NCBI GenBank assembly: GCA_029932935.1
Contig: JAOZPD010000004.1
Span: forward strand, 1-34,436
DNA from: Candidatus Omnitrophota bacterium
GTDB taxonomy: Bacteria; Omnitrophota; Gorgyraeia; Gygaellales; JAHJCI01
Reading direction: 5' to 3'
DNA length: 34,436 nucleotides
Positions 1,458 through 15,322 of this stretch are shown piece after piece. The notes below the pieces were generated by a model. The model worked only from the letters and a program-made list of their open reading frames with translations. It searched no databases and was not told the origin of the DNA. Numbering within the stretch: position 1 is the first letter of the stretch; each line of letters opens with the position of its first letter. The position numbers were made by a program, and so were the translations under genes.

Positions 1458-1880
1458 TCAACCGCCACCGCCGCCGCCACCGCCGCCACAGGCAGCAGAT
1501 GTTAAAACCCCTCCGGTCGTAATAGTAAATGTCCTGGTACCGGTGGTGTTGCAGGTCGTAGGAGTAGCTGTACAACTGTATCCAGTAGCTGCTAATGTAC
1601 CGCAGGCAAAGGCATAACCCTGTCTTGCTGAAGCTGTATAATCCTCATTTAGATATGGCGGATTTGCTCCTGTTAAAGTAGCTATTGAAGTAGGATAATT
1701 TCCGTTGTTTGCTGCAGCATAGCTCTCACAAGCAGTGGAGATTGTGCGTAAGGTGGCTTGGGCATTGCTCTCATTAGCATTAACTCGGGCCCTGAGAAGA
1801 TTGGGTATGGCGATTGCCGCTAATAAAGCAACGATTGCCACTACTATCATGATTTCAACCAATGTAAAACCTCTTCTCAT
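1458..1880 (-). CDS. pilA: Major type IV pilin (prepilin) with a C-terminal Gly9 tail
   Basis: 140 aa. MRRG|FTLVEIMIVVAIVALLAAIAIPNLLRARVNANESNAQATLRTIS is a textbook type IV pilin N-terminus. Five Cys lie in the globular domain. An extended SD GAAAGGAGGU sits 8 nt upstream of the ATG. The gene has its own terminator and ends ..AACGGGGGGGGG*. Confidence 0.9.
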   Translation of the reverse strand: MRRGFTLVEIMIVVAIVALLAAIAIPNLLRARVNANESNAQATLRTISTACESYAAANNGNYPTSIATLTGANPPYLNEDYTASARQGYAFACGTLAATGYSCTATPTTCNTTGTRTFTITTGGVLTSAACGGGGGGGGG

Positions 1881-2490: not shown

Positions 2491-3702
2491 CTAACGACTT
2501 ATCAGCTGCGTTATCTGAAAGATAGGTAAAAATAAGGCAATTACAATACCACCAATAATGATACCCAGGAAGGCAATAACCAACGGCTCAATCATACTGG
2601 TTAAACCCGCAACAGCAGCATCTACCTGCTCATCATAAAAATCGGCAATCTTGGTAAGCATTATTTCCAATTTTCCCGTCTGTTCACCCACGGCAATCAT
2701 TGCTGTAACCATAGGAGGAAAAACACCACTCCTGGTTAAAGGCTGCGCAATCGGTTCTCCCTCACGAACAGAATGCAAGGAATTACTCACCGCCTCCTCT
2801 ACCACCTTATTACCAGATGTCCTTGCCACAATATTCAGTGCATCAAGGATAGACACACCACTCCTGACCAATGTCGAGAGTGTACGGGAAAACTTCGCAA
2901 CAGCTACCTTACGAAAGAGTTCCCCCACAACAGGTAGCTTAAGAGTCATCTTATCAAAATTATATCTTCCTTTATCTGTATTAATATATCTCTTAAAGAG
3001 GAAAACCAGAATAAAAATACCAATAACCACAAAGATAAACATTCTCCTTAACAAATCACTAATCGCAATAAGTATAAGGGTCGGTAACGGCAAATTGCCA
3101 CCCAGCATATCAAATATCCCCTTGAACGTAGGCACAACCTTAAGTAGTAGAACAGCAGTAATCAAGATAGCCATAGTAAGCACAACTGCTGGATAGATAA
3201 GACTTGATTTAACCTTCCTTGTTAAGGCAGCCATTTTCTCCAGATAAGTCGCTATCCTGCCTAAAACGTCATCAAGCATCCCAGATGTCTCTCCTGCACG
3301 CACCATACTAACAAAAAACGTAGAAAACATACGAGGATATCTGGCTAAGCTATCACAGAAACTCAATCCAGACTCTACGTCCTGACGGATCATAAAAACA
3401 ACATTTTTAAGAGCTGGTGCCTCCACCTGATCAATCAATATTCTCAAGGCGCCTACTAAAGGAATACCAGAATCAATCAAGGTAGCCAGCTGGCGAGAAA
3501 AAACAACCAAGTCATCCATTTTCACCCTACCACCGCCTCGCTGTCGCTTAGCAATGGTTTTTTTCTTCGTCAGCTTTACAGAGACTACCGTCAATTCTCT
3601 CTTATGCAACTGTTGTATAACCTCATTCTCATTGGCAGCTTCGATAATACCATTTACTGTCTGTGCAGTTTTATCTTTAGCTGTATATTGGAATGTAGGC
3701 AT
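2491..3702 (-). CDS. pilC: Type IV pilus platform protein PilC (GspF family)
   Basis: 403 aa. It has two T2SS-F repeats (..FSRQLATLIDSGIPLVGAL.. and ..FSRTLSTLVRSGVSILDAL..) and three TM segments. AAGGAG SD sits 6 nt upstream of the ATG at 3702. Confidence 0.93.
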   Translation of the reverse strand: MPTFQYTAKDKTAQTVNGIIEAANENEVIQQLHKRELTVVSVKLTKKKTIAKRQRGGGRVKMDDLVVFSRQLATLIDSGIPLVGALRILIDQVEAPALKNVVFMIRQDVESGLSFCDSLARYPRMFSTFFVSMVRAGETSGMLDDVLGRIATYLEKMAALTRKVKSSLIYPAVVLTMAILITAVLLLKVVPTFKGIFDMLGGNLPLPTLILIAISDLLRRMFIFVVIGIFILVFLFKRYINTDKGRYNFDKMTLKLPVVGELFRKVAVAKFSRTLSTLVRSGVSILDALNIVARTSGNKVVEEAVSNSLHSVREGEPIAQPLTRSGVFPPMVTAMIAVGEQTGKLEIMLTKIADFYDEQVDAAVAGLTSMIEPLVIAFLGIIIGGIVIALFLPIFQITQLISR

Positions 3703-3734: not shown

Positions 3735-5450
3735 TTATTCCTCAGTTGTTATACGTACAGCCTCATCCAGAGTAGTCAACCCCTGTTTTGCCTTCAGTAG
3801 AGCATCGTCACGCAACGTCCTCATACCTTTCTTTTTTATAGCGTATGCCTTGATTTCCTCGAGGGACCCTTTCTTAATAATTAACTGACGGATATAATCA
3901 TCGATCATCAAAACCTCTAACACGGCGATTCTTCCGAAGTAGCCTGTATTATTACAATAGTCACAGCCCTTAGCCTGGTAAAAGGTCGCCTTCTCTTTAA
4001 TTCCCAGCCCCTTAAGAATCTCGCCGGGAGCATCGTATATCTGACGACACTTATTACAAAGTCTTCTACATAGCCGTTGGGCACACGCCATAATTAAACT
4101 GGAGGCCACCAAGAAAGGCTCAATCCCCATATCAATAAGTCTGGTAATACTGGAAGCGGCGTCGTTAGTATGAAGCGTAGAAAGAAGTAATTGTCCGGTT
4201 AAAGCGGCTTTAATAGCGATATCCGCGGTTTCCGAATCACGAATCTCACCCACCATAATTACATCCGGACTCTGACGAAGCACAGAACGCAAACCAGAGG
4301 CAAAATCCAGACCAATCTCATGATGCGCCTGAACCTGAGTAATCCCCTCAATCTCATATTCTACGGGGTCCTCAATAGTAACAATGCTTCTCTCTGGTGT
4401 ATTTAATTGATTTACTATGGAATAAAGGGTTGTAGATTTACCGCTACCTGTCGGTCCAGTTACCAGAATCATACCAAAAGGATGAGCGATTGCCTCTTTG
4501 AATAAACGTAATGGCTCCTCAGAAAATCCTAACTTATCTAACCCCACAGAAAGATTGGATTTATCTAAGGCACGTAAAACAAATTTCTGGCCAAAAGTGG
4601 TAGGTAATGCAGATACTCGAAAATCTATCTCCTTATTCTCTAGGCGTACTTTAAATCTACCATCCTGAGGCAGACGGCTTTCAGTAATATTCATATTAGA
4701 TATTATCTTTAAACGCGCCAATACGGCATTCTGATTTTTCTTGGGTAGTCTCAATACATCGTATAAATCGCCATCGATGCGATAACGGACACGCAAGCAA
4801 TCCTCTTCAGGTTCTACATGAATATCCGAAGACCTCCGCTTTAAAGCCTGTATCAACATCAGATCAACAAGTTTAACGATGGGGGGGGTCTGGCTCTCGC
4901 GTACTGCCTGCGTCAACTCCAATTCTTCGGTCACCTGGACATCTGAAACCATCTCTCTTTCCCCCTCTAACGCCCCCTTAGAAATCTCGCCAAGAATCTT
5001 CTGTAAATCAGCTGCGTCTTTATGATACTGCTTATCTATTGCTGCCCTGATTTCATCCTCAGAACTCAAAACAATATCTATATCGCATCCGGTTAATGTC
5101 TTCAGGTCATCCAGAGCAAAAATATTAAAGGGATCGGTCATTGCTATGGTCATGGTATTCCCCATACGGGAGAGAGGAATAATCCCGTATCTTAGACAAA
5201 TCTGCTCAGGAACCAGTGAAATAACCTTTGGATCAAATTTGTATTTTGCCAGACGCAGAAAAGGCAGATACAGATGTTCCGAGAGAATGGAAAGCAGTTC
5301 CTGTTCAGAGATAATCTTTTCCTTTAATAATAACTGCCTCAGAGACAATTTCTTCCTCTTTTGTAATTGAATCAACTCATCAAGCTTTTCCTTGGGTATA
5401 GATTTATATCTCACCAATATATCGACTAATCTTTCCTTTAAATTTATCAT
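3735..5450 (-). CDS. pilB: PilB/GspE-type assembly ATPase, paralogue 2
   Basis: 571 aa. It has an N-terminal MshEN/T2SSE_N domain, Walker A GPTGSGKST, Asp/His boxes, and a tetracysteine motif CNKC..GCDYC typical of extension ATPases. Confidence 0.92.
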   Translation of the reverse strand: MINLKERLVDILVRYKSIPKEKLDELIQLQKRKKLSLRQLLLKEKIISEQELLSILSEHLYLPFLRLAKYKFDPKVISLVPEQICLRYGIIPLSRMGNTMTIAMTDPFNIFALDDLKTLTGCDIDIVLSSEDEIRAAIDKQYHKDAADLQKILGEISKGALEGEREMVSDVQVTEELELTQAVRESQTPPIVKLVDLMLIQALKRRSSDIHVEPEEDCLRVRYRIDGDLYDVLRLPKKNQNAVLARLKIISNMNITESRLPQDGRFKVRLENKEIDFRVSALPTTFGQKFVLRALDKSNLSVGLDKLGFSEEPLRLFKEAIAHPFGMILVTGPTGSGKSTTLYSIVNQLNTPERSIVTIEDPVEYEIEGITQVQAHHEIGLDFASGLRSVLRQSPDVIMVGEIRDSETADIAIKAALTGQLLLSTLHTNDAASSITRLIDMGIEPFLVASSLIMACAQRLCRRLCNKCRQIYDAPGEILKGLGIKEKATFYQAKGCDYCNNTGYFGRIAVLEVLMIDDYIRQLIIKKGSLEEIKAYAIKKKGMRTLRDDALLKAKQGLTTLDEAVRITTEE

Positions 5451-5537
5451 CGCTATTTTATATTATATACCCTATTTTTTCTCATCGGATAACTATGTCA
5501 TCAAACAAAATAACATTATTCTACAGTATTTACGGAA

Positions 5538-7241
5538 TCAGGCAGCGGTTACACGTAGAACCTCTTCCAGTGAAGTCTCTCCCTGCAAGGCAAGTGCAAG
5601 CGCATTTTCTCTTAATGTCTTCATACCTTCTCTGCAGGCCAACTGCTTAATCTGGAGTTCCTCTGCTCCAGATAAAATCAAATTTTTTATATCGGAAGAA
5701 AGTAATAATACCTCAGCGATTCCCAATCTTCCTGAATAACCCGTTTTAAAACAATACTTACACCCTAAGGGACGATAAAATGCGGAATGCGAAACCCCAG
5801 ATAAATCCAACCGCTTAATCATCTCTTTATTAAGCTCGTACCTTTCTTTACATTTAGGACATAATCTACGCACTAACCTCTGAGCAACCACACAAATAAG
5901 AGAAGAGGTAATCAAGTAAGGTTCCACCCCCATATTCACTAAGCGTACAATCGCACCACTTGAGGTAGTAGTATGCAAAGTAGAAAGTACCAAATGTCCT
6001 GTAAGTGCACTTTTAATGGCGATATCCACAGTCTCGAAATCGCGTATCTCGCCAATCATAATTACATTAGGATCCTGTCTCAGGATAGAGCGTAATGCTG
6101 AGGCAAAGGTAAGCCCAATATCGGGCTTTATGGTCACCTGATTTATACCTTCCAGCTGAAATTCCACCGGGTCTTCAACTGTAACGAGGTTCTTCTGCGG
6201 AGAATCTATAAATTTAAGAATAGAGTATAATGTAGTAGTTTTGCCGCTACCAGTGGGACCGCAGACCAATATCATTCCATGAGGAGCAGAGGCTGCCTTT
6301 TTTAATTTGGCTACACTTGAATCATCAAAACCTAATTTATCCACATCTAATGATGCTTGAGATTTATCCAGAATCCTTATCGCTGCCTTCTCCCCCTGAC
6401 TGGAGGGAAGTATCGAAACGCGAAAATCAACGAACCTATTCTGAATTCTTACCTTAAATCTACCATCCTGTGGCAATCTATGTTCTGCAATATCCAACTC
6501 AGATAACACCTTTATACGCGAAATAAGCAAAGGATGCATTGATTTAGGAGGAGCTTCTTGTTCGCGAAGAACACCGTCTATACGGAAGCGTATCCTCAAA
6601 CTTTCAGGCATCGGTTCAATAAGGATATCGGATGCCTTTTTCTTAATCGCCTCCTCTAAAATCATATTTGTCAATCGAATAGCCGGGCCCTGCCTACTGG
6701 CAAGACCCAGCTCCTGGTCACTCAGTGTATCCCTCTTCTTTTCCTGAATCAGTTCTATCTTGGACTCACTAATCTCATCGAGAAGCTCCTCTATTATACC
6801 GGTGGTTGTATCCGGATAAAACTGATCAATTGCCTGGATAATCTGATCGGTAGTTGATATAATGGGATTTATCTGAAAACCGGTTAGATTGCGTAAAGCA
6901 TCTATGGCAAAGATATTCAATGGATCTGCCATAGCAATGGTGAGTGTATCACCCATCTGTGAGATAGGAATTATTTGATAATGGTAACAAATCTTAGCTG
7001 GTATAATGCTTAATACATCTGCATCTATTTTAATTCTTTTAAGGTCTATAAGCGGTAGTCCTAATCCTTCGCTTAAGGCAAAGGCAAGGTCGTTTTCTTT
7101 AACGAAACCCAAATCTACAATTATCTTACTTAATCGACCACCCTTAGTCTTCTGGATTTCTAAAGCCTGAGCCAACTGCTGGCGAGTAATAAGCTTGTTA
7201 TCGATTAATATCTCTGTAAGTCTTTCTTTTAAAGAAGTCAT
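5538..7241 (-). CDS. pilB: PilB/GspE-type assembly ATPase, paralogue 1
   Basis: 567 aa. The N-terminal MshEN domain has two 24-residue motifs separated by exactly 5 residues (RLTEILIDNKLITRQQLAQALEIQ-KTKGG-RLSKIIVDLGFVKENDLAFALSEG). It also has Walker A GPTGSGKTT and tetracysteine CPKC..GCKYC. Confidence 0.92.
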   Translation of the reverse strand: MTSLKERLTEILIDNKLITRQQLAQALEIQKTKGGRLSKIIVDLGFVKENDLAFALSEGLGLPLIDLKRIKIDADVLSIIPAKICYHYQIIPISQMGDTLTIAMADPLNIFAIDALRNLTGFQINPIISTTDQIIQAIDQFYPDTTTGIIEELLDEISESKIELIQEKKRDTLSDQELGLASRQGPAIRLTNMILEEAIKKKASDILIEPMPESLRIRFRIDGVLREQEAPPKSMHPLLISRIKVLSELDIAEHRLPQDGRFKVRIQNRFVDFRVSILPSSQGEKAAIRILDKSQASLDVDKLGFDDSSVAKLKKAASAPHGMILVCGPTGSGKTTTLYSILKFIDSPQKNLVTVEDPVEFQLEGINQVTIKPDIGLTFASALRSILRQDPNVIMIGEIRDFETVDIAIKSALTGHLVLSTLHTTTSSGAIVRLVNMGVEPYLITSSLICVVAQRLVRRLCPKCKERYELNKEMIKRLDLSGVSHSAFYRPLGCKYCFKTGYSGRLGIAEVLLLSSDIKNLILSGAEELQIKQLACREGMKTLRENALALALQGETSLEEVLRVTAA

Positions 7242-7251
7242 ATTCTATTTA

Positions 7252-7695
7252 TTATTTATGGTAATATTTCTCAATTGCCCTACGGATATCTCCAGATGTA
7301 CTTACAAATATTTGGACCTTACAGCCAGTGAGTTTCTCAAGTTTCTCAATTGCCTCATTATCTAAGGGATTACTCATGGCAACACTCAAGCTTTTGCTTA
7401 ATCTATCGACAGGCATACATAAATATTGTTTAGCTATCTCACAAGGGACCATCTCGACAACCTCAGAATCAATCTCATAGCTATCCAAGGGTAAATAAGG
7501 AAATCCATACTGGGCGGTTAATGCTTGGGCAATATCTTCCTCTTTAGCAAATCCCATCTCAACCAGTATTTCTCCTATTAACCCACCCTGCTCTTCCTTG
7601 ATAGAAAGGGCCTTCTGGAACTGCTCCGGAGTAATTATCCGCCTTTCAATAAGAATCTCCCCCAACAACTTATTAACGATTTTTCTTAACGGCAT
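7252..7695 (-). CDS. Stand-alone MshEN / GspE N-terminal domain protein (no ATPase domain)
   Basis: The ORF track gives 7252..7749 with a GTG start. The internal ATG at 7695 (MPLRKIVNKLLGEILIERRIITPEQFQKALSIK-EEQGG-LIGEILVEMGFAKEEDIAQALTAQ..) is the more likely start. The whole protein aligns with the first ~145 aa of the two PilB paralogues and then stops. Confidence 0.8.
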   Translation of the reverse strand: MPLRKIVNKLLGEILIERRIITPEQFQKALSIKEEQGGLIGEILVEMGFAKEEDIAQALTAQYGFPYLPLDSYEIDSEVVEMVPCEIAKQYLCMPVDRLSKSLSVAMSNPLDNEAIEKLEKLTGCKVQIFVSTSGDIRRAIEKYYHK

Positions 7696-7960
7696 ATCTA
7701 TTATCTTCCATCCTTTCTCTATCAAAACTATACTTGTTATAACTACCACAGCGAGGACAAACAGAGATTTCTGTCCTATGGGTAGTAAAATAGGTATATG
7801 TACAAATACTGCAACACCAGATAAATCTTGGACTTAGACTTAAAAAACTACCAAAAGAATCCTCCTCTCTTAGAAAAATCCACAAACAAAACACTACACC
7901 CAGAAGAATCAATAGATATAAAGACAGGGCTATAGAAAAATCAATCTTTACCATATACAT
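7673..7960 (-). CDS. Small membrane-anchored zinc-ribbon protein (hypothetical)
   Basis: 95 aa. It has one N-terminal TM helix (FSIALSLYLLILLGVVFCLWIF), then CSIC-x14-CPRC. The start codon overlaps the upstream stop as TAATG (7962..7958). The 3' end overlaps the next gene by 23 nt. Confidence 0.55.
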   Translation of the reverse strand: MYMVKIDFSIALSLYLLILLGVVFCLWIFLREEDSFGSFLSLSPRFIWCCSICTYTYFTTHRTEISVCPRCGSYNKYSFDRERMEDNRYAVKKNR

Positions 7961-8622
7961 TATGGGGTCAAATCAATCTTTACAACTCGCGAAGAGCCGC
8001 TGGTGAAATTTGCCTTACAAAGATTAAGGAAATGAGTCAGATTCCTCATAATCAAAAGGTCCACCTCAGGATTCCCGGATGAAATCTTTCTCTTGATTAC
8101 GTCAATCCTTCCCTTGGGAGAAATACAGAAAGCCACCTCCATATGAGCAGTTTGACGATCCTTAAAATATAAAAGAAAATGATACGGCATCGATGGATAA
8201 AACATTATACTCGACTCACCCTTTTTTAGCTTGAGTGTAGGTGAAGGCTCAAGGTATAAGATCTTATCATCCCTTAGATTAGGTAAGGAGGGTTTATTAA
8301 ACTCAGACTTAGAAAGATGAATCAAATATGGCTGTGGCACTTGAGTTAACCCCTGTGCTTTACTCAATGTACCAAGCGCATTGGTCCTGCATAGAAATAC
8401 AACTCTCGATGTCCCTGATGCAAAATTACTTCTTTTAATCGAATCTCGGGTATAATCTGATTTTGTAAATATGGGCCCCAGGAAGAAGACATTATAAAAA
8501 TTATAACTGTCTTCTGCATCTATTCTCTTGCCAAAGGTAAGTTTTACACTACTAAAACAAAATATATGACAAAATAAAGAGATAAATATAGTGAATTTTA
8601 AACCTGTTTTAGCAAACCGCAA
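7960..8622 (-). CDS. TonB/TolA-like energy-transducer candidate (N-terminal anchor, TonB_C-like C-terminus, no Pro-rich linker)
   Basis: 220 aa. TTG start at 8622, preceded by GGAG 6 nt upstream. N-terminal hydrophobic anchor LKFTIFISLFCHIFCF. The C-terminal MEVAFCISPKGRIDVIKRKISSGNPEVDLLIMRNL resembles the TonB C-domain pattern (v.f.I...G.v.....SSG...lD). It sits directly after ExbB-ExbD. Confidence 0.55.
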   Translation of the reverse strand: MRFAKTGLKFTIFISLFCHIFCFSSVKLTFGKRIDAEDSYNFYNVFFLGPIFTKSDYTRDSIKRSNFASGTSRVVFLCRTNALGTLSKAQGLTQVPQPYLIHLSKSEFNKPSLPNLRDDKILYLEPSPTLKLKKGESSIMFYPSMPYHFLLYFKDRQTAHMEVAFCISPKGRIDVIKRKISSGNPEVDLLIMRNLTHFLNLCKANFTSGSSRVVKIDLTP

Positions 8623-8624
8623 AA

Positions 8625-9026
8625 TTACTCCTGATATGTAGCGATATTCACTTGAGATAACCCAAACTCTCTAGCCATATCCCAAATCTCAACCACTCTA
8701 CCTAATTGTGCCCGGCGGTCAGCCTTAATCAACAATGGTTGACTGCGAGCAGCCAACCTTTCAAAAATAGACTTCAGCTCTCGAATATTTACTACCCTAC
8801 CATCAAGATATATAACATTCTCTCCAGAAACTACTATTTCTACCGTTCTTGTTCTAACCATCTGACTGGTAACTGCCTTAGGTAGATTGACCCTAACCGC
8901 TGAGGGCACAATGAAGCTGGATGTGAGCATAAAGAATATCAATAATTGGAAGATTACATCTACCAATGGAGCAATATCAATTTGCCTTAATCCATGCTCT
9001 AATTCTATATGGCGTTTAAACCGCAT
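8625..9026 (-). CDS. ExbD/TolR family biopolymer transport protein
   Basis: 133 aa. The motif ..IDIAPLVDVIFQLLIFFMLTSSF.. with the conserved TM Asp (VD) matches the typical ExbD/TolR architecture. Confidence 0.9.
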   Translation of the reverse strand: MRFKRHIELEHGLRQIDIAPLVDVIFQLLIFFMLTSSFIVPSAVRVNLPKAVTSQMVRTRTVEIVVSGENVIYLDGRVVNIRELKSIFERLAARSQPLLIKADRRAQLGRVVEIWDMAREFGLSQVNIATYQE

Positions 9027-9031
9027 ATATA

Positions 9032-9643
9032 TTACTCAGTCAAGAAATTAACTAATTCAGTAGAAACCCGTTCCATCTCCAATATAAAACTGTTTATCCG
9101 ACTAACCAGATAATTATAAACTACAAATGCTGGTATAGCAACAACTAATCCAGCTACGGTGGTCAACAACGCCTCCCATATGCCACCAGCCAAATCCCCC
9201 GGAGAAACTACCTGTAATGCAGTAGATTTCGTCTGGATTATTTGAAAGCAGCGCACCATCCCTACTACTGTCCCCAATAATCCCAATAGAGGCGAGATAT
9301 GGGCAATTGTAGCTAAAGCAGTCATATTTCTTTCCAGATGAGGTTCCTCATATAACACAGCATCCTCAATAGCCTCTTTAATCTGCTGACGCCCCCGATC
9401 ATACTTGAGGATTCCCGCCTTTAGAATCCTGGAGATGGGGTTCTGTTTTTTTTCGCAAATCTCCAAGGCCTCCTTTATTTGATGTCGTTTCATTCTCTCT
9501 AATATCCGATTTAAGAATTGATGCGTATCTATCTGTATTCTCCATAGATACCAAATGCGTTCAATAATTATAGCCAGGGCCAATATAGAACAGAACAATA
9601 TCGGCCACATCAACGGACCACCCTTTAAAAATATCTGCCACAT
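9032..9643 (-). CDS. MotA/TolQ/ExbB family proton channel
   Basis: The ORF track starts at GTG 9649. ATG 9643 (MWQIFLKGGPLMWPIL..) has AAAGGAG 8 nt upstream. Three TM segments, and the conserved C-terminal ..GGIWEALLTTVAGLVVAIPA.. motif. Confidence 0.9.
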   Translation of the reverse strand: MWQIFLKGGPLMWPILFCSILALAIIIERIWYLWRIQIDTHQFLNRILERMKRHQIKEALEICEKKQNPISRILKAGILKYDRGRQQIKEAIEDAVLYEEPHLERNMTALATIAHISPLLGLLGTVVGMVRCFQIIQTKSTALQVVSPGDLAGGIWEALLTTVAGLVVAIPAFVVYNYLVSRINSFILEMERVSTELVNFLTE

Positions 9644-9743
9644 ATCCACAACTCCTTTGTCGTTCTTTGTTGTTTCTTATTCTACAATAAACAATTCTGT
9701 TGCGAAATATCAACTATTATATTTTAAAATCTCACCCACCTTC

Positions 9744-15198: not shown

Positions 15199-15322
15199 AC
15201 AGTAACTCTCCACATGGAGTCCAGCTACTATTTTATAACAATATTTTATAACTGGAGCCCATTATGCATGAGACGGTTTCTTCACTCTATATCTTTAACT
15301 TCTTCTACTTATGTAAGTTATG

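Follow-up and report, generated by a model that had tools for sequence, protein, structure and literature searches.

Gene content of the pilus motor locus

The 34,436-nucleotide stretch of Candidatus Omnitrophota DNA analysed here (contig JAOZPD010000004.1, positions 1-34,436; hereafter the window) carries a set of type IV pilus genes in which a small protein consisting of a single MshEN domain, termed the orphan, is encoded directly ahead of two PilB-type ATPases, PilB1 and PilB2. MshEN domains of pilus ATPases can serve as receptors for cyclic di-GMP (c-di-GMP), and the question addressed is which of the three domains at this locus could do so. All genes of the pilus region were found on the minus strand according to the open reading frame (ORF) list of the window. 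In the order of transcription they encode a tetratricopeptide repeat (TPR) protein, ExbB, ExbD, a 220-residue protein, a 95-residue membrane protein and the orphan; these are followed by PilB1, PilB2, the platform protein PilC, a c-di-GMP-I riboswitch and three pilin-like genes (Table 1). Related loci and related proteins are referred to below by L-numbers and P-numbers, respectively.

The orphan was found to be an intact and widely conserved gene. Its ORF is listed as 7252-7749 (165 amino acids, GTG start); because all homologues begin with MPL[KR]K, the start was assigned to the ATG at 7695, and from the stop codon to the start of PilB1 there are 10 nt. Pfam detected MshEN alone in the orphan (PF05157, 80.3 bits compared with a threshold of 23.1), and both subdomains of the fold are present, namely the four-helix bundle of MshEN_N and the alpha/beta portion that forms MshEN_C. 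The AlphaFold2 (AF2) model of the protein (predicted local distance difference test score, pLDDT, of 87) displayed helices and strands in the expected order, and a Foldseek search with this model returned template modeling (TM) scores of 0.76-0.82 to 5HTL, 9G1W, and 6EJF. The TM score to MshEN bound to c-di-GMP (5HTL) was 0.78-0.82, and the model also superposed on the GSPII-A (9G1W) and GSPII-B domains of PilF and on the N-domain of Xanthomonas PilB. Since GSPII-A and MshEN with its c-di-GMP ligand match about equally, this fold comparison cannot separate binders from non-binders.

Protein searches with the orphan returned thousands of homologues; the best 120 displayed 54-79% identity, were mostly 147-150 amino acids in length, were labelled hypothetical or 'PilB', and derived from metagenome-assembled genomes of Candidatus Omnitrophota. 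Relatives were detected in at least 501 species-representative genomes, nearly all of them Omnitrophota and among them the complete Ca. Velamenicoccus archaeovorus LiM genome. The nonsynonymous divergence (dN) of the orphan from its relatives was 0.19-0.36 with synonymous sites saturated, and therefore only dN is reportable. With identities to PilB N-domains of 37% (PilB1), 28% (PilB2), and 39% (Geobacter PilB), the orphan is an old lineage of its own rather than the product of a recent truncation. The stand-alone MshEN architecture is in itself not rare, as a profile search of 1.8 billion representatives found short stand-alone MshEN proteins to be numerous, and multi-MshEN ATPases as well. 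A longer form of the orphan, of 212-221 amino acids with the MshEN_N bundle duplicated, was also noted (L004 10001-10639, with P0004-P0025).

Both ATPases encoded downstream of the orphan were assigned T2SSE and MshEN domains by Pfam and retain Walker A, the Asp box, Walker B, and the CxxC...CxxC tetracysteine (Zn) motif. The best Protein Data Bank (PDB) matches of the two proteins were the Geobacter and Myxococcus PilB structures (about 520-553 bits), compared with about 115-126 bits for PilT structures. Whereas PilT/PilU retraction ATPases are short (about 345-400 aa) and have neither the N1 domain nor the Zn motif, both proteins are of full length with an MshEN domain and four Cys. On the PilT/PilU model TIGR01420 the ATPases scored 182 and 194 bits, short of the cut-off of 319, and on the PilB equivalog model TIGR02538 they scored 635.6 (PilB1) and 635.3 bits (PilB2), short of the trusted cut-off of 675.65; the latter shortfall might be expected for a deep-branching phylum. 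When all large ORFs were classified, no PilT and no T2SSE gene besides PilB1 and PilB2 was found in the window, and searches of the literature turned up nothing on PilT elsewhere in Omnitrophota. The original prediction for this DNA, which was based on the sequence letters and a list of ORFs, had described two full-length extension-type PilB ATPases of 567 and 571 residues with Walker A, tetracysteine and MshEN, neither of them PilT-type, with no PilT in the window and a GEMM-I riboswitch downstream; each of these points was confirmed, and the hidden Markov model (HMM) search it had proposed detected MshEN in all three proteins.

PilB1 and PilB2 are 47% identical. Across about 60 related loci they fall into two orthologue groups, with 67-68% identity within groups and 45% between them (never above 50%). 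The duplication, whose age the original prediction had asked about, is old because of this difference in identity within and between groups; judged by the same sequence comparison, it is older than the radiation of the Omnitrophota sampled here, and L086, a GC-rich relative, has it as well. The His box differs between the paralogues, reading TGQLVLSTLHT in PilB2 compared with TGH in PilB1 and canonical PilB, and the TGQ form is kept in most of the 56 PilB2 orthologues and in L086. Separately, L018 7321-10842 contains a 1173-residue ORF that resembles PilB1 and PilB2 joined, as either a fusion or a frameshift artefact.

Table 1. Genes and features of the pilus region, with their positions in the window
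Feature	Position	Strand	Support or remark
TPR protein, 838 aa	9744-12260	minus	
ExbB	9032-9649	minus	
ExbD	8625-9026	minus	
220-aa protein without family match, possibly TonB-like	7960-8622	minus	
95-aa membrane protein, CxxC...CxxC	7673-7960	minus	conserved in L006, L007, L026
Orphan, stand-alone MshEN protein, 147 aa	7252-7695	minus	Pfam PF05157, NCBIfam NF053729, AF2, Foldseek
Orphan c-di-GMP motif region, 53 residues (10-62), LLGEILIERRIITPEQFQKALSIK-EEQGG-LIGEILVEMGFAKEEDIAQALTAQ	7510-7668	minus	
PilB1, type IVa pilus extension-type ATPase, 567 aa	5538-7241	minus	Pfam, PDB matches, TIGR02538
PilB1 motif region, residues 7-59	7065-7223	minus	
PilB2, second extension-type ATPase, 571 aa	3735-5450	minus	Pfam, PDB matches, TIGR02538
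PilB2 motif region, residues 7-59	5274-5432	minus	
PilC platform protein, 403 aa, two T2SSF domains	2491-3702	minus	Pfam
c-di-GMP-I (GEMM-I) riboswitch aptamer, between PilC and pilin gene	2267-2350	minus	RF01051
Type IV pilin, 140 aa, downstream of riboswitch	1458-1880	minus	
Two more pilin-like genes	853-1263 and 390-836	minus	

The ExbB, ExbD, 220-residue and TPR genes are tightly packed on the same strand upstream of the motor genes, with which they possibly share one transcription unit. A GGC/GGT trinucleotide repeat (window 1458-1490, minus strand) gives the first pilin a C-terminal run of nine Gly residues. The remaining large ORFs of the window are housekeeping genes (UvrA, lysine and arginine biosynthesis, S9/L13, and RecJ).

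Motif states of the three MshEN domains

The c-di-GMP motif of MshEN consists of two 24-residue motifs separated by a 5-residue spacer. The three domains were scored at 22 positions against (i) a strict extended consensus; and (ii) a relaxed motif, in which the motif of Wang et al. is widened to admit Leu at position 1. In addition, NF053729, the c-di-GMP motif model of NCBIfam with a cut-off of 38 bits, was applied. Positions are given below by motif and residue number (e.g., I-10 for position 10 of motif I). The orphan, with its motifs at residues 10-33 and 39-62 and the spacer EEQGG, matched the strict consensus at 15/22 and the relaxed motif at 21/22 positions and scored 60.3 bits on NF053729. 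PilB1 matched at 17/22 (strict) and 18/22 (relaxed) with 58.5 bits, likewise above the cut-off, and PilB2 at 14/22 and 15/22 with 25.7 bits, below the cut-off. The strict-consensus misses of the orphan were I-10 R, I-17 F, I-24 K, II-2 I, II-11 F, II-12 A, and II-17 I; every one of these deviations is permitted by the relaxed motif except I-10 (R), the sole non-conservative miss. For PilB1 the misses were I-3 T, I-10 K, II-3 S, II-11 F, and II-24 G, with the same pattern in 70 orthologues, and those of PilB2 include I-3 V, II-1 S, II-3 R, and II-24 H. Family-wide NF053729 scans of the N-domains yielded best E-values only, and these did not separate the three groups beyond the scores obtained for the window.

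The positions of known functional weight were then compared between the families. The backbone amide of Gly3 bonds the guanine of c-di-GMP, and in a reconstructed PilF domain a change of Gly3 to Ala lowers affinity 10-30 fold (PMC12002112). In mshE, the G11A mutation reduced biofilm biomass to a level as low as in the mshE deletion, and XpsE, which has Val and Leu at the Gly3 sites among other changes, is a non-binder. The orphan retains Gly3 in both motifs (G12 and G41), as do 83/83 of its relatives. Across 70 PilB1 orthologues this position is instead Thr in motif I (56 proteins) and Ser in motif II (67 proteins), and among the 56 PilB2 orthologues it is a bulky Ile/Val in motif I (39 proteins) and Arg/Lys in motif II (54 proteins), with Pro/Ser at II-1. 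Gln24, which contacts the phosphate and ribose, is present in motif II of the window orphan and of 83/83 relatives; in motif I the window orphan has Lys, and Gln is found in 78/83 relatives. PilB1 has Gln24 in motif I of all 70 orthologues and Gly in motif II of 61; PilB2 has Gln in motif I of 51 and in motif II of 32 of its 56 orthologues. Conservation at the Leu/Ile positions of the orphan family is at least 90%, with basic residues ahead of motif I. Because Gly3 is kept in the orphan and lost in PilB1 and PilB2, the orphan is the best candidate for c-di-GMP binding, with PilB1 doubtful and PilB2 unlikely. PilB1 may still bind, since the HMM scores of 58.5 and 60.3 bits do not separate it from the orphan and since a c-di-GMP capture screen recovered Bd1509, a Bdellovibrio PilB that has Asn at II-3.

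The leading residue of the motif also differs, with the orphan displaying Leu at position 1 of both motifs, a state outside the consensus of 2016 and inside the extended consensus of 2024. The GSPII-B domain of Thermus PilF, with Lys and Leu at position 1, binds c-di-GMP with a dissociation constant (Kd) of 6 nM, and its K167L variant, which has Leu at both positions like the window orphan, binds with a Kd of 2 nM (PMC11731258). The consensus was accordingly widened to (R/K/L)LG..., and a hydrophobic residue at position 1 was proposed as a marker of very high affinity (PMC11731258). The Deinococcus middle domain, with Lys and Ala at position 1, is likewise a tight binder. Bd2402, included by Wang et al. 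in their list of experimentally characterised binding, has F at I-1 and K at I-24, the latter being the same state as in the window orphan.

These findings bear on the original prediction, which had proposed three candidate receptors with PilB1 as the best match and the orphan flawed by its Leu. The motif strings it quoted were exact, with a 5-residue spacer in each pair. Its view that PilB1 fits well holds by count (17/22) and fails by location, as the misses include Gly3 of both motifs and Gln24 of motif II. The statement that the orphan fits in all positions except the leading Arg was not upheld, as the strict consensus is also missed at the seven other positions listed above, and the ranking of the three domains is reversed by the Gly3 states and by the literature on Leu at position 1.

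Conserved neighborhood and c-di-GMP context

Gene order was examined by calling ORFs in 81 non-redundant loci and classifying them against the window proteins, with denominators referring to the loci with enough sequence. A PilB gene directly follows the orphan in 68/68 loci, two PilB genes follow it in 56/56, and the PilB pair is followed by PilC in 40/40. Two further genes recur in the relatives: (i) a gene for a REC-HD-GYP protein between PilB2 and PilC (34/40 loci), with the HD and DGxGYP motifs intact in 44 of the 46 proteins checked; and (ii) a gene for a HAMP-GAF-GGDEF membrane protein directly upstream of the orphan (65/71 loci), often overlapping the orphan start. The conservation of the triad, which the original prediction had suggested should be checked in relatives, and its c-di-GMP-linked setting are thus both apparent, the latter from the REC-HD-GYP gene and from a riboswitch in the window and 4/7 relatives.

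The upstream HAMP-GAF-GGDEF protein (e.g., L001 8569-9999) was considered as a local diguanylate cyclase, and this candidate was dropped. The signature GG[DE]EF was found in 0/67 proteins, with the column varying freely (GDDEF, GDNEF, DDDEF, EYDEF, EKNSF, and others). When aligned with PleD, the guanine-binding Asn335 corresponded to Thr and the I-site Arg359 to Ser, with no RxxD I-site. As judged from these residues, the HAMP-GAF-GGDEF protein probably neither produces c-di-GMP nor binds it at an I-site.

Together with L006, L007, and L026, the window represents a minority variant that is without the GGDEF-like and HD-GYP genes. In this variant the place of the HAMP-GAF-degenerate-GGDEF protein is held by the 95-residue membrane protein, which has one predicted membrane helix and a zinc-ribbon-like CxxC...CxxC arrangement, and the stop of which overlaps the orphan start by 23 nt. 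No match to this protein was found in Pfam or NCBIfam. A tblastn search of the window for GGDEF or HD-GYP remnants yielded chance-level matches only. In L006 and L007 the 95-residue gene is preceded by a gene for a TonB-like protein, the counterpart of the 220-residue gene of the window, and in L007 also by ExbD.

The riboswitch was detected with RF01051 at 57.7 bits (gathering score 35), and it occurs at the same place in four of the seven loci tested (L006, L050, L054, and L083). The L050 copy (15244-15321) fits the c-di-GMP-I-GGC family RF03167 (65.2 bits), not the standard class I model. About 40 nt past the aptamer of the window, at ~2195-2230 on the minus strand, a hairpin (CCTATTCT...GAGAATAGG) followed by a T run was noted that had been overlooked by the consensus terminator scan; it is likely a terminator-type expression platform. 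A promoter-like site, TTGACA...TATAAG, lies downstream of this hairpin and ahead of the pilin gene.

One relative was found to encode the orphan and PilB1 as a single chain. In L086 (8001-13263), located on a contig of 62% GC from a JGI metagenome, the 765-residue protein P0131 consists of an orphan-like domain (43% identity) fused to a PilB1 orthologue (50.5% identity), and it is followed by a PilB2 orthologue (49% identity, TGQ His box) and PilC (49% identity). The distal, orphan-like domain of P0131 keeps the motif Gly3, for which the ATPase-proximal domain has Ile and Leu. Of the evidence obtained here, this fusion points most strongly to physical cooperation of the orphan with PilB1, as an extra N-terminal domain supplied in trans.

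Two further features of the related loci were observed. Between PilB2 and PilC, L058 (13908-18505) has an extra 1377-residue GGDEF protein and a second orphan. The contigs of L001, L003, L012, L013, and many more stop 6-7 kb downstream of the orphan, right after PilC, a pattern that points to assembly breaks in the pilin region, perhaps due to strain variation or repeated pilin genes.

Role of the stand-alone MshEN protein

Our best reading, held with moderate confidence and drawn from the comparisons above, is that the orphan most likely acts as a detached c-di-GMP sensor domain of the PilB1 motor. The locus encodes a type IVa pilus motor module in which two anciently duplicated PilB-type ATPases operate on one PilC platform. 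From the observed gene content, conservation, synteny, motif states and fold, and the fusion in a relative, we infer that the orphan would bind c-di-GMP in an intact two-motif pocket, with Leu in place of the canonical Arg caps, and that the bound form would dock on PilB1 (or PilB1/PilB2) and so couple the second-messenger level to pilus assembly, the direction of this regulation being equally provisional. The MshEN domains carried by the ATPases, from which the key Gly is gone, would probably serve mainly in docking and structure. The riboswitch ahead of the pilin gene would add a second layer of c-di-GMP control, and the REC-HD-GYP phosphodiesterase within the operon of most relatives may add a third. 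A more speculative and improbable extension is that PilB1 and PilB2 take turns on one PilC or form mixed hexamers, giving extension and retraction free of PilT, with the c-di-GMP-loaded orphan selecting the ATPase that is engaged.

Several observations weigh against a c-di-GMP sensor role for the orphan. The closest solved relative of the orphan is the GSPII-A domain of Thermus PilF (71.9 bits; top Foldseek match), which is a non-binder even with a repaired motif (PMC12002112). The site of GSPII-A is blocked by a longer, N-capped helix 1 and by contacts of its subdomains with each other; features of this type do not show in sequence and may also be present in the orphan, and in the AF2 model helix 1 begins at residue 3, upstream of the motif, with low confidence. 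Within the motif, the window orphan itself departs from the consensus at I-10 (R), I-17 (F), and I-24 (K), and I-1 is Gln rather than Leu in 63/83 relatives. The near-tie of PilB1 and the orphan on NF053729, together with the capture of Bd1509, also tells against singling out the orphan. Finally, the window has no cyclase and no phosphodiesterase, and in the relatives the GGDEF domain encoded next to the orphan is degenerate.

A possible, though rather unlikely, alternative is that the orphan is a rigid landing pad or adaptor like GSPII-A that recruits partners or tethers the motor to the membrane protein encoded upstream, i.e., the HAMP-GAF-degenerate-GGDEF protein in most relatives and the 95-residue Zn-ribbon protein here. 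Besides the non-binding GSPII-A being the best PDB match in both sequence and fold and not regaining binding by motif repair alone, this alternative is in line with the overlap or near abutment of the orphan with the upstream membrane-protein gene in 65/71 relatives and in the window, and with the equivalence of MshEN_C to the N1E domain, through which GspL is bound in type II secretion systems (Wang 2016 supplement). However, both Gly3 residues and the polar, surface-facing Gln24 are near-invariant in the orphan family, for which the fold alone would have no obvious need; GSPII-A itself has lost these residues (H33, R62, S39, and A41), and the orphan scores above the NF053729 cut-off.

The proposal of the original prediction that the orphan, PilB1 and PilB2 are all c-di-GMP receptors acting in parallel is one that we regard as distinctly unlikely. 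Each protein does have an MshEN domain with two motifs and a 5-residue spacer, PilB1 passes NF053729 and in its 70 orthologues retains R/K as the leading motif residue as well as Gln at I-24, and some PilB2 orthologues match the motif model well (best E-value 2.3e-16). Yet PilB1 is without Gly3 in both motifs and without Gln at II-24, PilB2 combines its Ile/Val and Arg/Lys at position 3 with Pro/Ser at II-1, and the window PilB2 falls under the cut-off; the 10-30 fold cost of replacing Gly3 with Ala and the lack of binding by XpsE, which is without Gly3 among other changes, speak against binding by domains of this kind.

That the orphan is a competitive inhibitor, vying with PilB1 and PilB2 for the platform (PilM/PilC) with or without c-di-GMP, is highly improbable: it shares its fold with the ATPase N-domains and stands first in the operon in tight coupling to the ATPase genes, but the orphan-PilB1 fusion of L086 argues for one cooperating complex, and the identity to the domains it would mimic is only 28-37%. 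The idea that the orphan is the decaying remnant of a third ATPase gene, which the original prediction had named as an outcome that would undo its proposal and which has its sole support in the position directly before two paralogous ATPases, is refuted by conservation, given an intact ORF that ends exactly at the domain boundary, conservation phylum-wide at the same length, low dN with synonymous sites saturated, and no ATPase remains in the 10 nt between the orphan and PilB1.

A detached sensor domain would resemble several characterised systems in part. Like the N-domain of Vibrio cholerae MshE (5HTL), the orphan has the two-subdomain fold and paired 24-residue motifs with a 5-residue spacer, and it shares Gly3, the Leu clusters, and Gln24, the last in motif II of the window orphan and in both motifs of most relatives. 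Unlike the orphan, the MshE domain is part of the ATPase chain and has Arg at position 1; here it is a separate 147-residue protein with Leu (or Gln) at position 1 that carries the best-preserved copy, and the ATPase copies are without Gly3. Thermus thermophilus PilF, with three N-terminal GSPII/MshEN domains, similarly has several such domains for a pilus ATPase, not all of them binding (A does not bind; B and C do), and its K167L variant reproduces the Leu/Leu state of the window orphan, just as the fused orphan-PilB1 of L086 reproduces its single-chain layout. In PilF, however, the domains occupy one chain with an inactive distal domain A and serve one ATPase, whereas here the distal domain is separate, appears active by its motif residues, and accompanies two paralogues.

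Stand-alone MshEN-type proteins without an ATPase have a precedent in Pseudomonas aeruginosa PA3740, a listed binder (Wang 2016 Table S4). PA3740 differs in having canonical RLG motifs and a highly divergent C-subdomain (N1), whereas in the Omnitrophota orphan MshEN_C is regular and the place before two PilB genes is fixed. To our knowledge, there is no evidence for PA3740 in a pilB operon. The Xanthomonas FimX-PilZ-PilB complex (7LKM-7LKQ) is alike in that a separate sensor docks in trans on a non-binding PilB N-domain and in that a degenerate GGDEF protein is involved; it is unlike in that its sensor is a degenerate EAL domain acting via a PilZ adaptor, compared with the MshEN sensor proposed here, and no PilZ or EAL protein is present in the Omnitrophota cluster. 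Overall, the control of PilB/MshE motors by MshEN, multi-MshEN ATPases, stand-alone MshEN proteins, and trans sensors are already known, and the locus combines known parts in a new way without constituting a new type of system. The fixed phylum-wide module, composed of a degenerate-GGDEF sensor, a stand-alone MshEN, PilB1, PilB2 (TGQ), REC-HD-GYP, PilC, riboswitch, and pilin gene, was not found described in Omnitrophota surveys or in the literature on MshEN and on c-di-GMP.

In the attachment of Omnitrophota to host cells and in predation on them, type IVa pili are believed to play a central part (PMC10066038). Regulation of these pili by c-di-GMP is unmentioned in that study, and no paper on the subject was found. 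Our results suggest that a whole uncultured phylum wires c-di-GMP to its pilus motor in an unusual manner, through a separate MshEN sensor and two diverged PilB ATPases, together with a riboswitch on the pilin gene and, in most cases, an HD-GYP enzyme encoded in the operon. The locus also provides (i) a natural test of a hydrophobic position 1 as a marker of very-high-affinity MshEN domains; and (ii) together with L086, a natural split/fused pair for how extra MshEN domains communicate with the ATPase. Were the PilT-free switch between PilB1 and PilB2 to prove true, it would represent a phylum-wide, previously unrecognised control of pilus dynamics in ultra-small predatory or parasitic bacteria.

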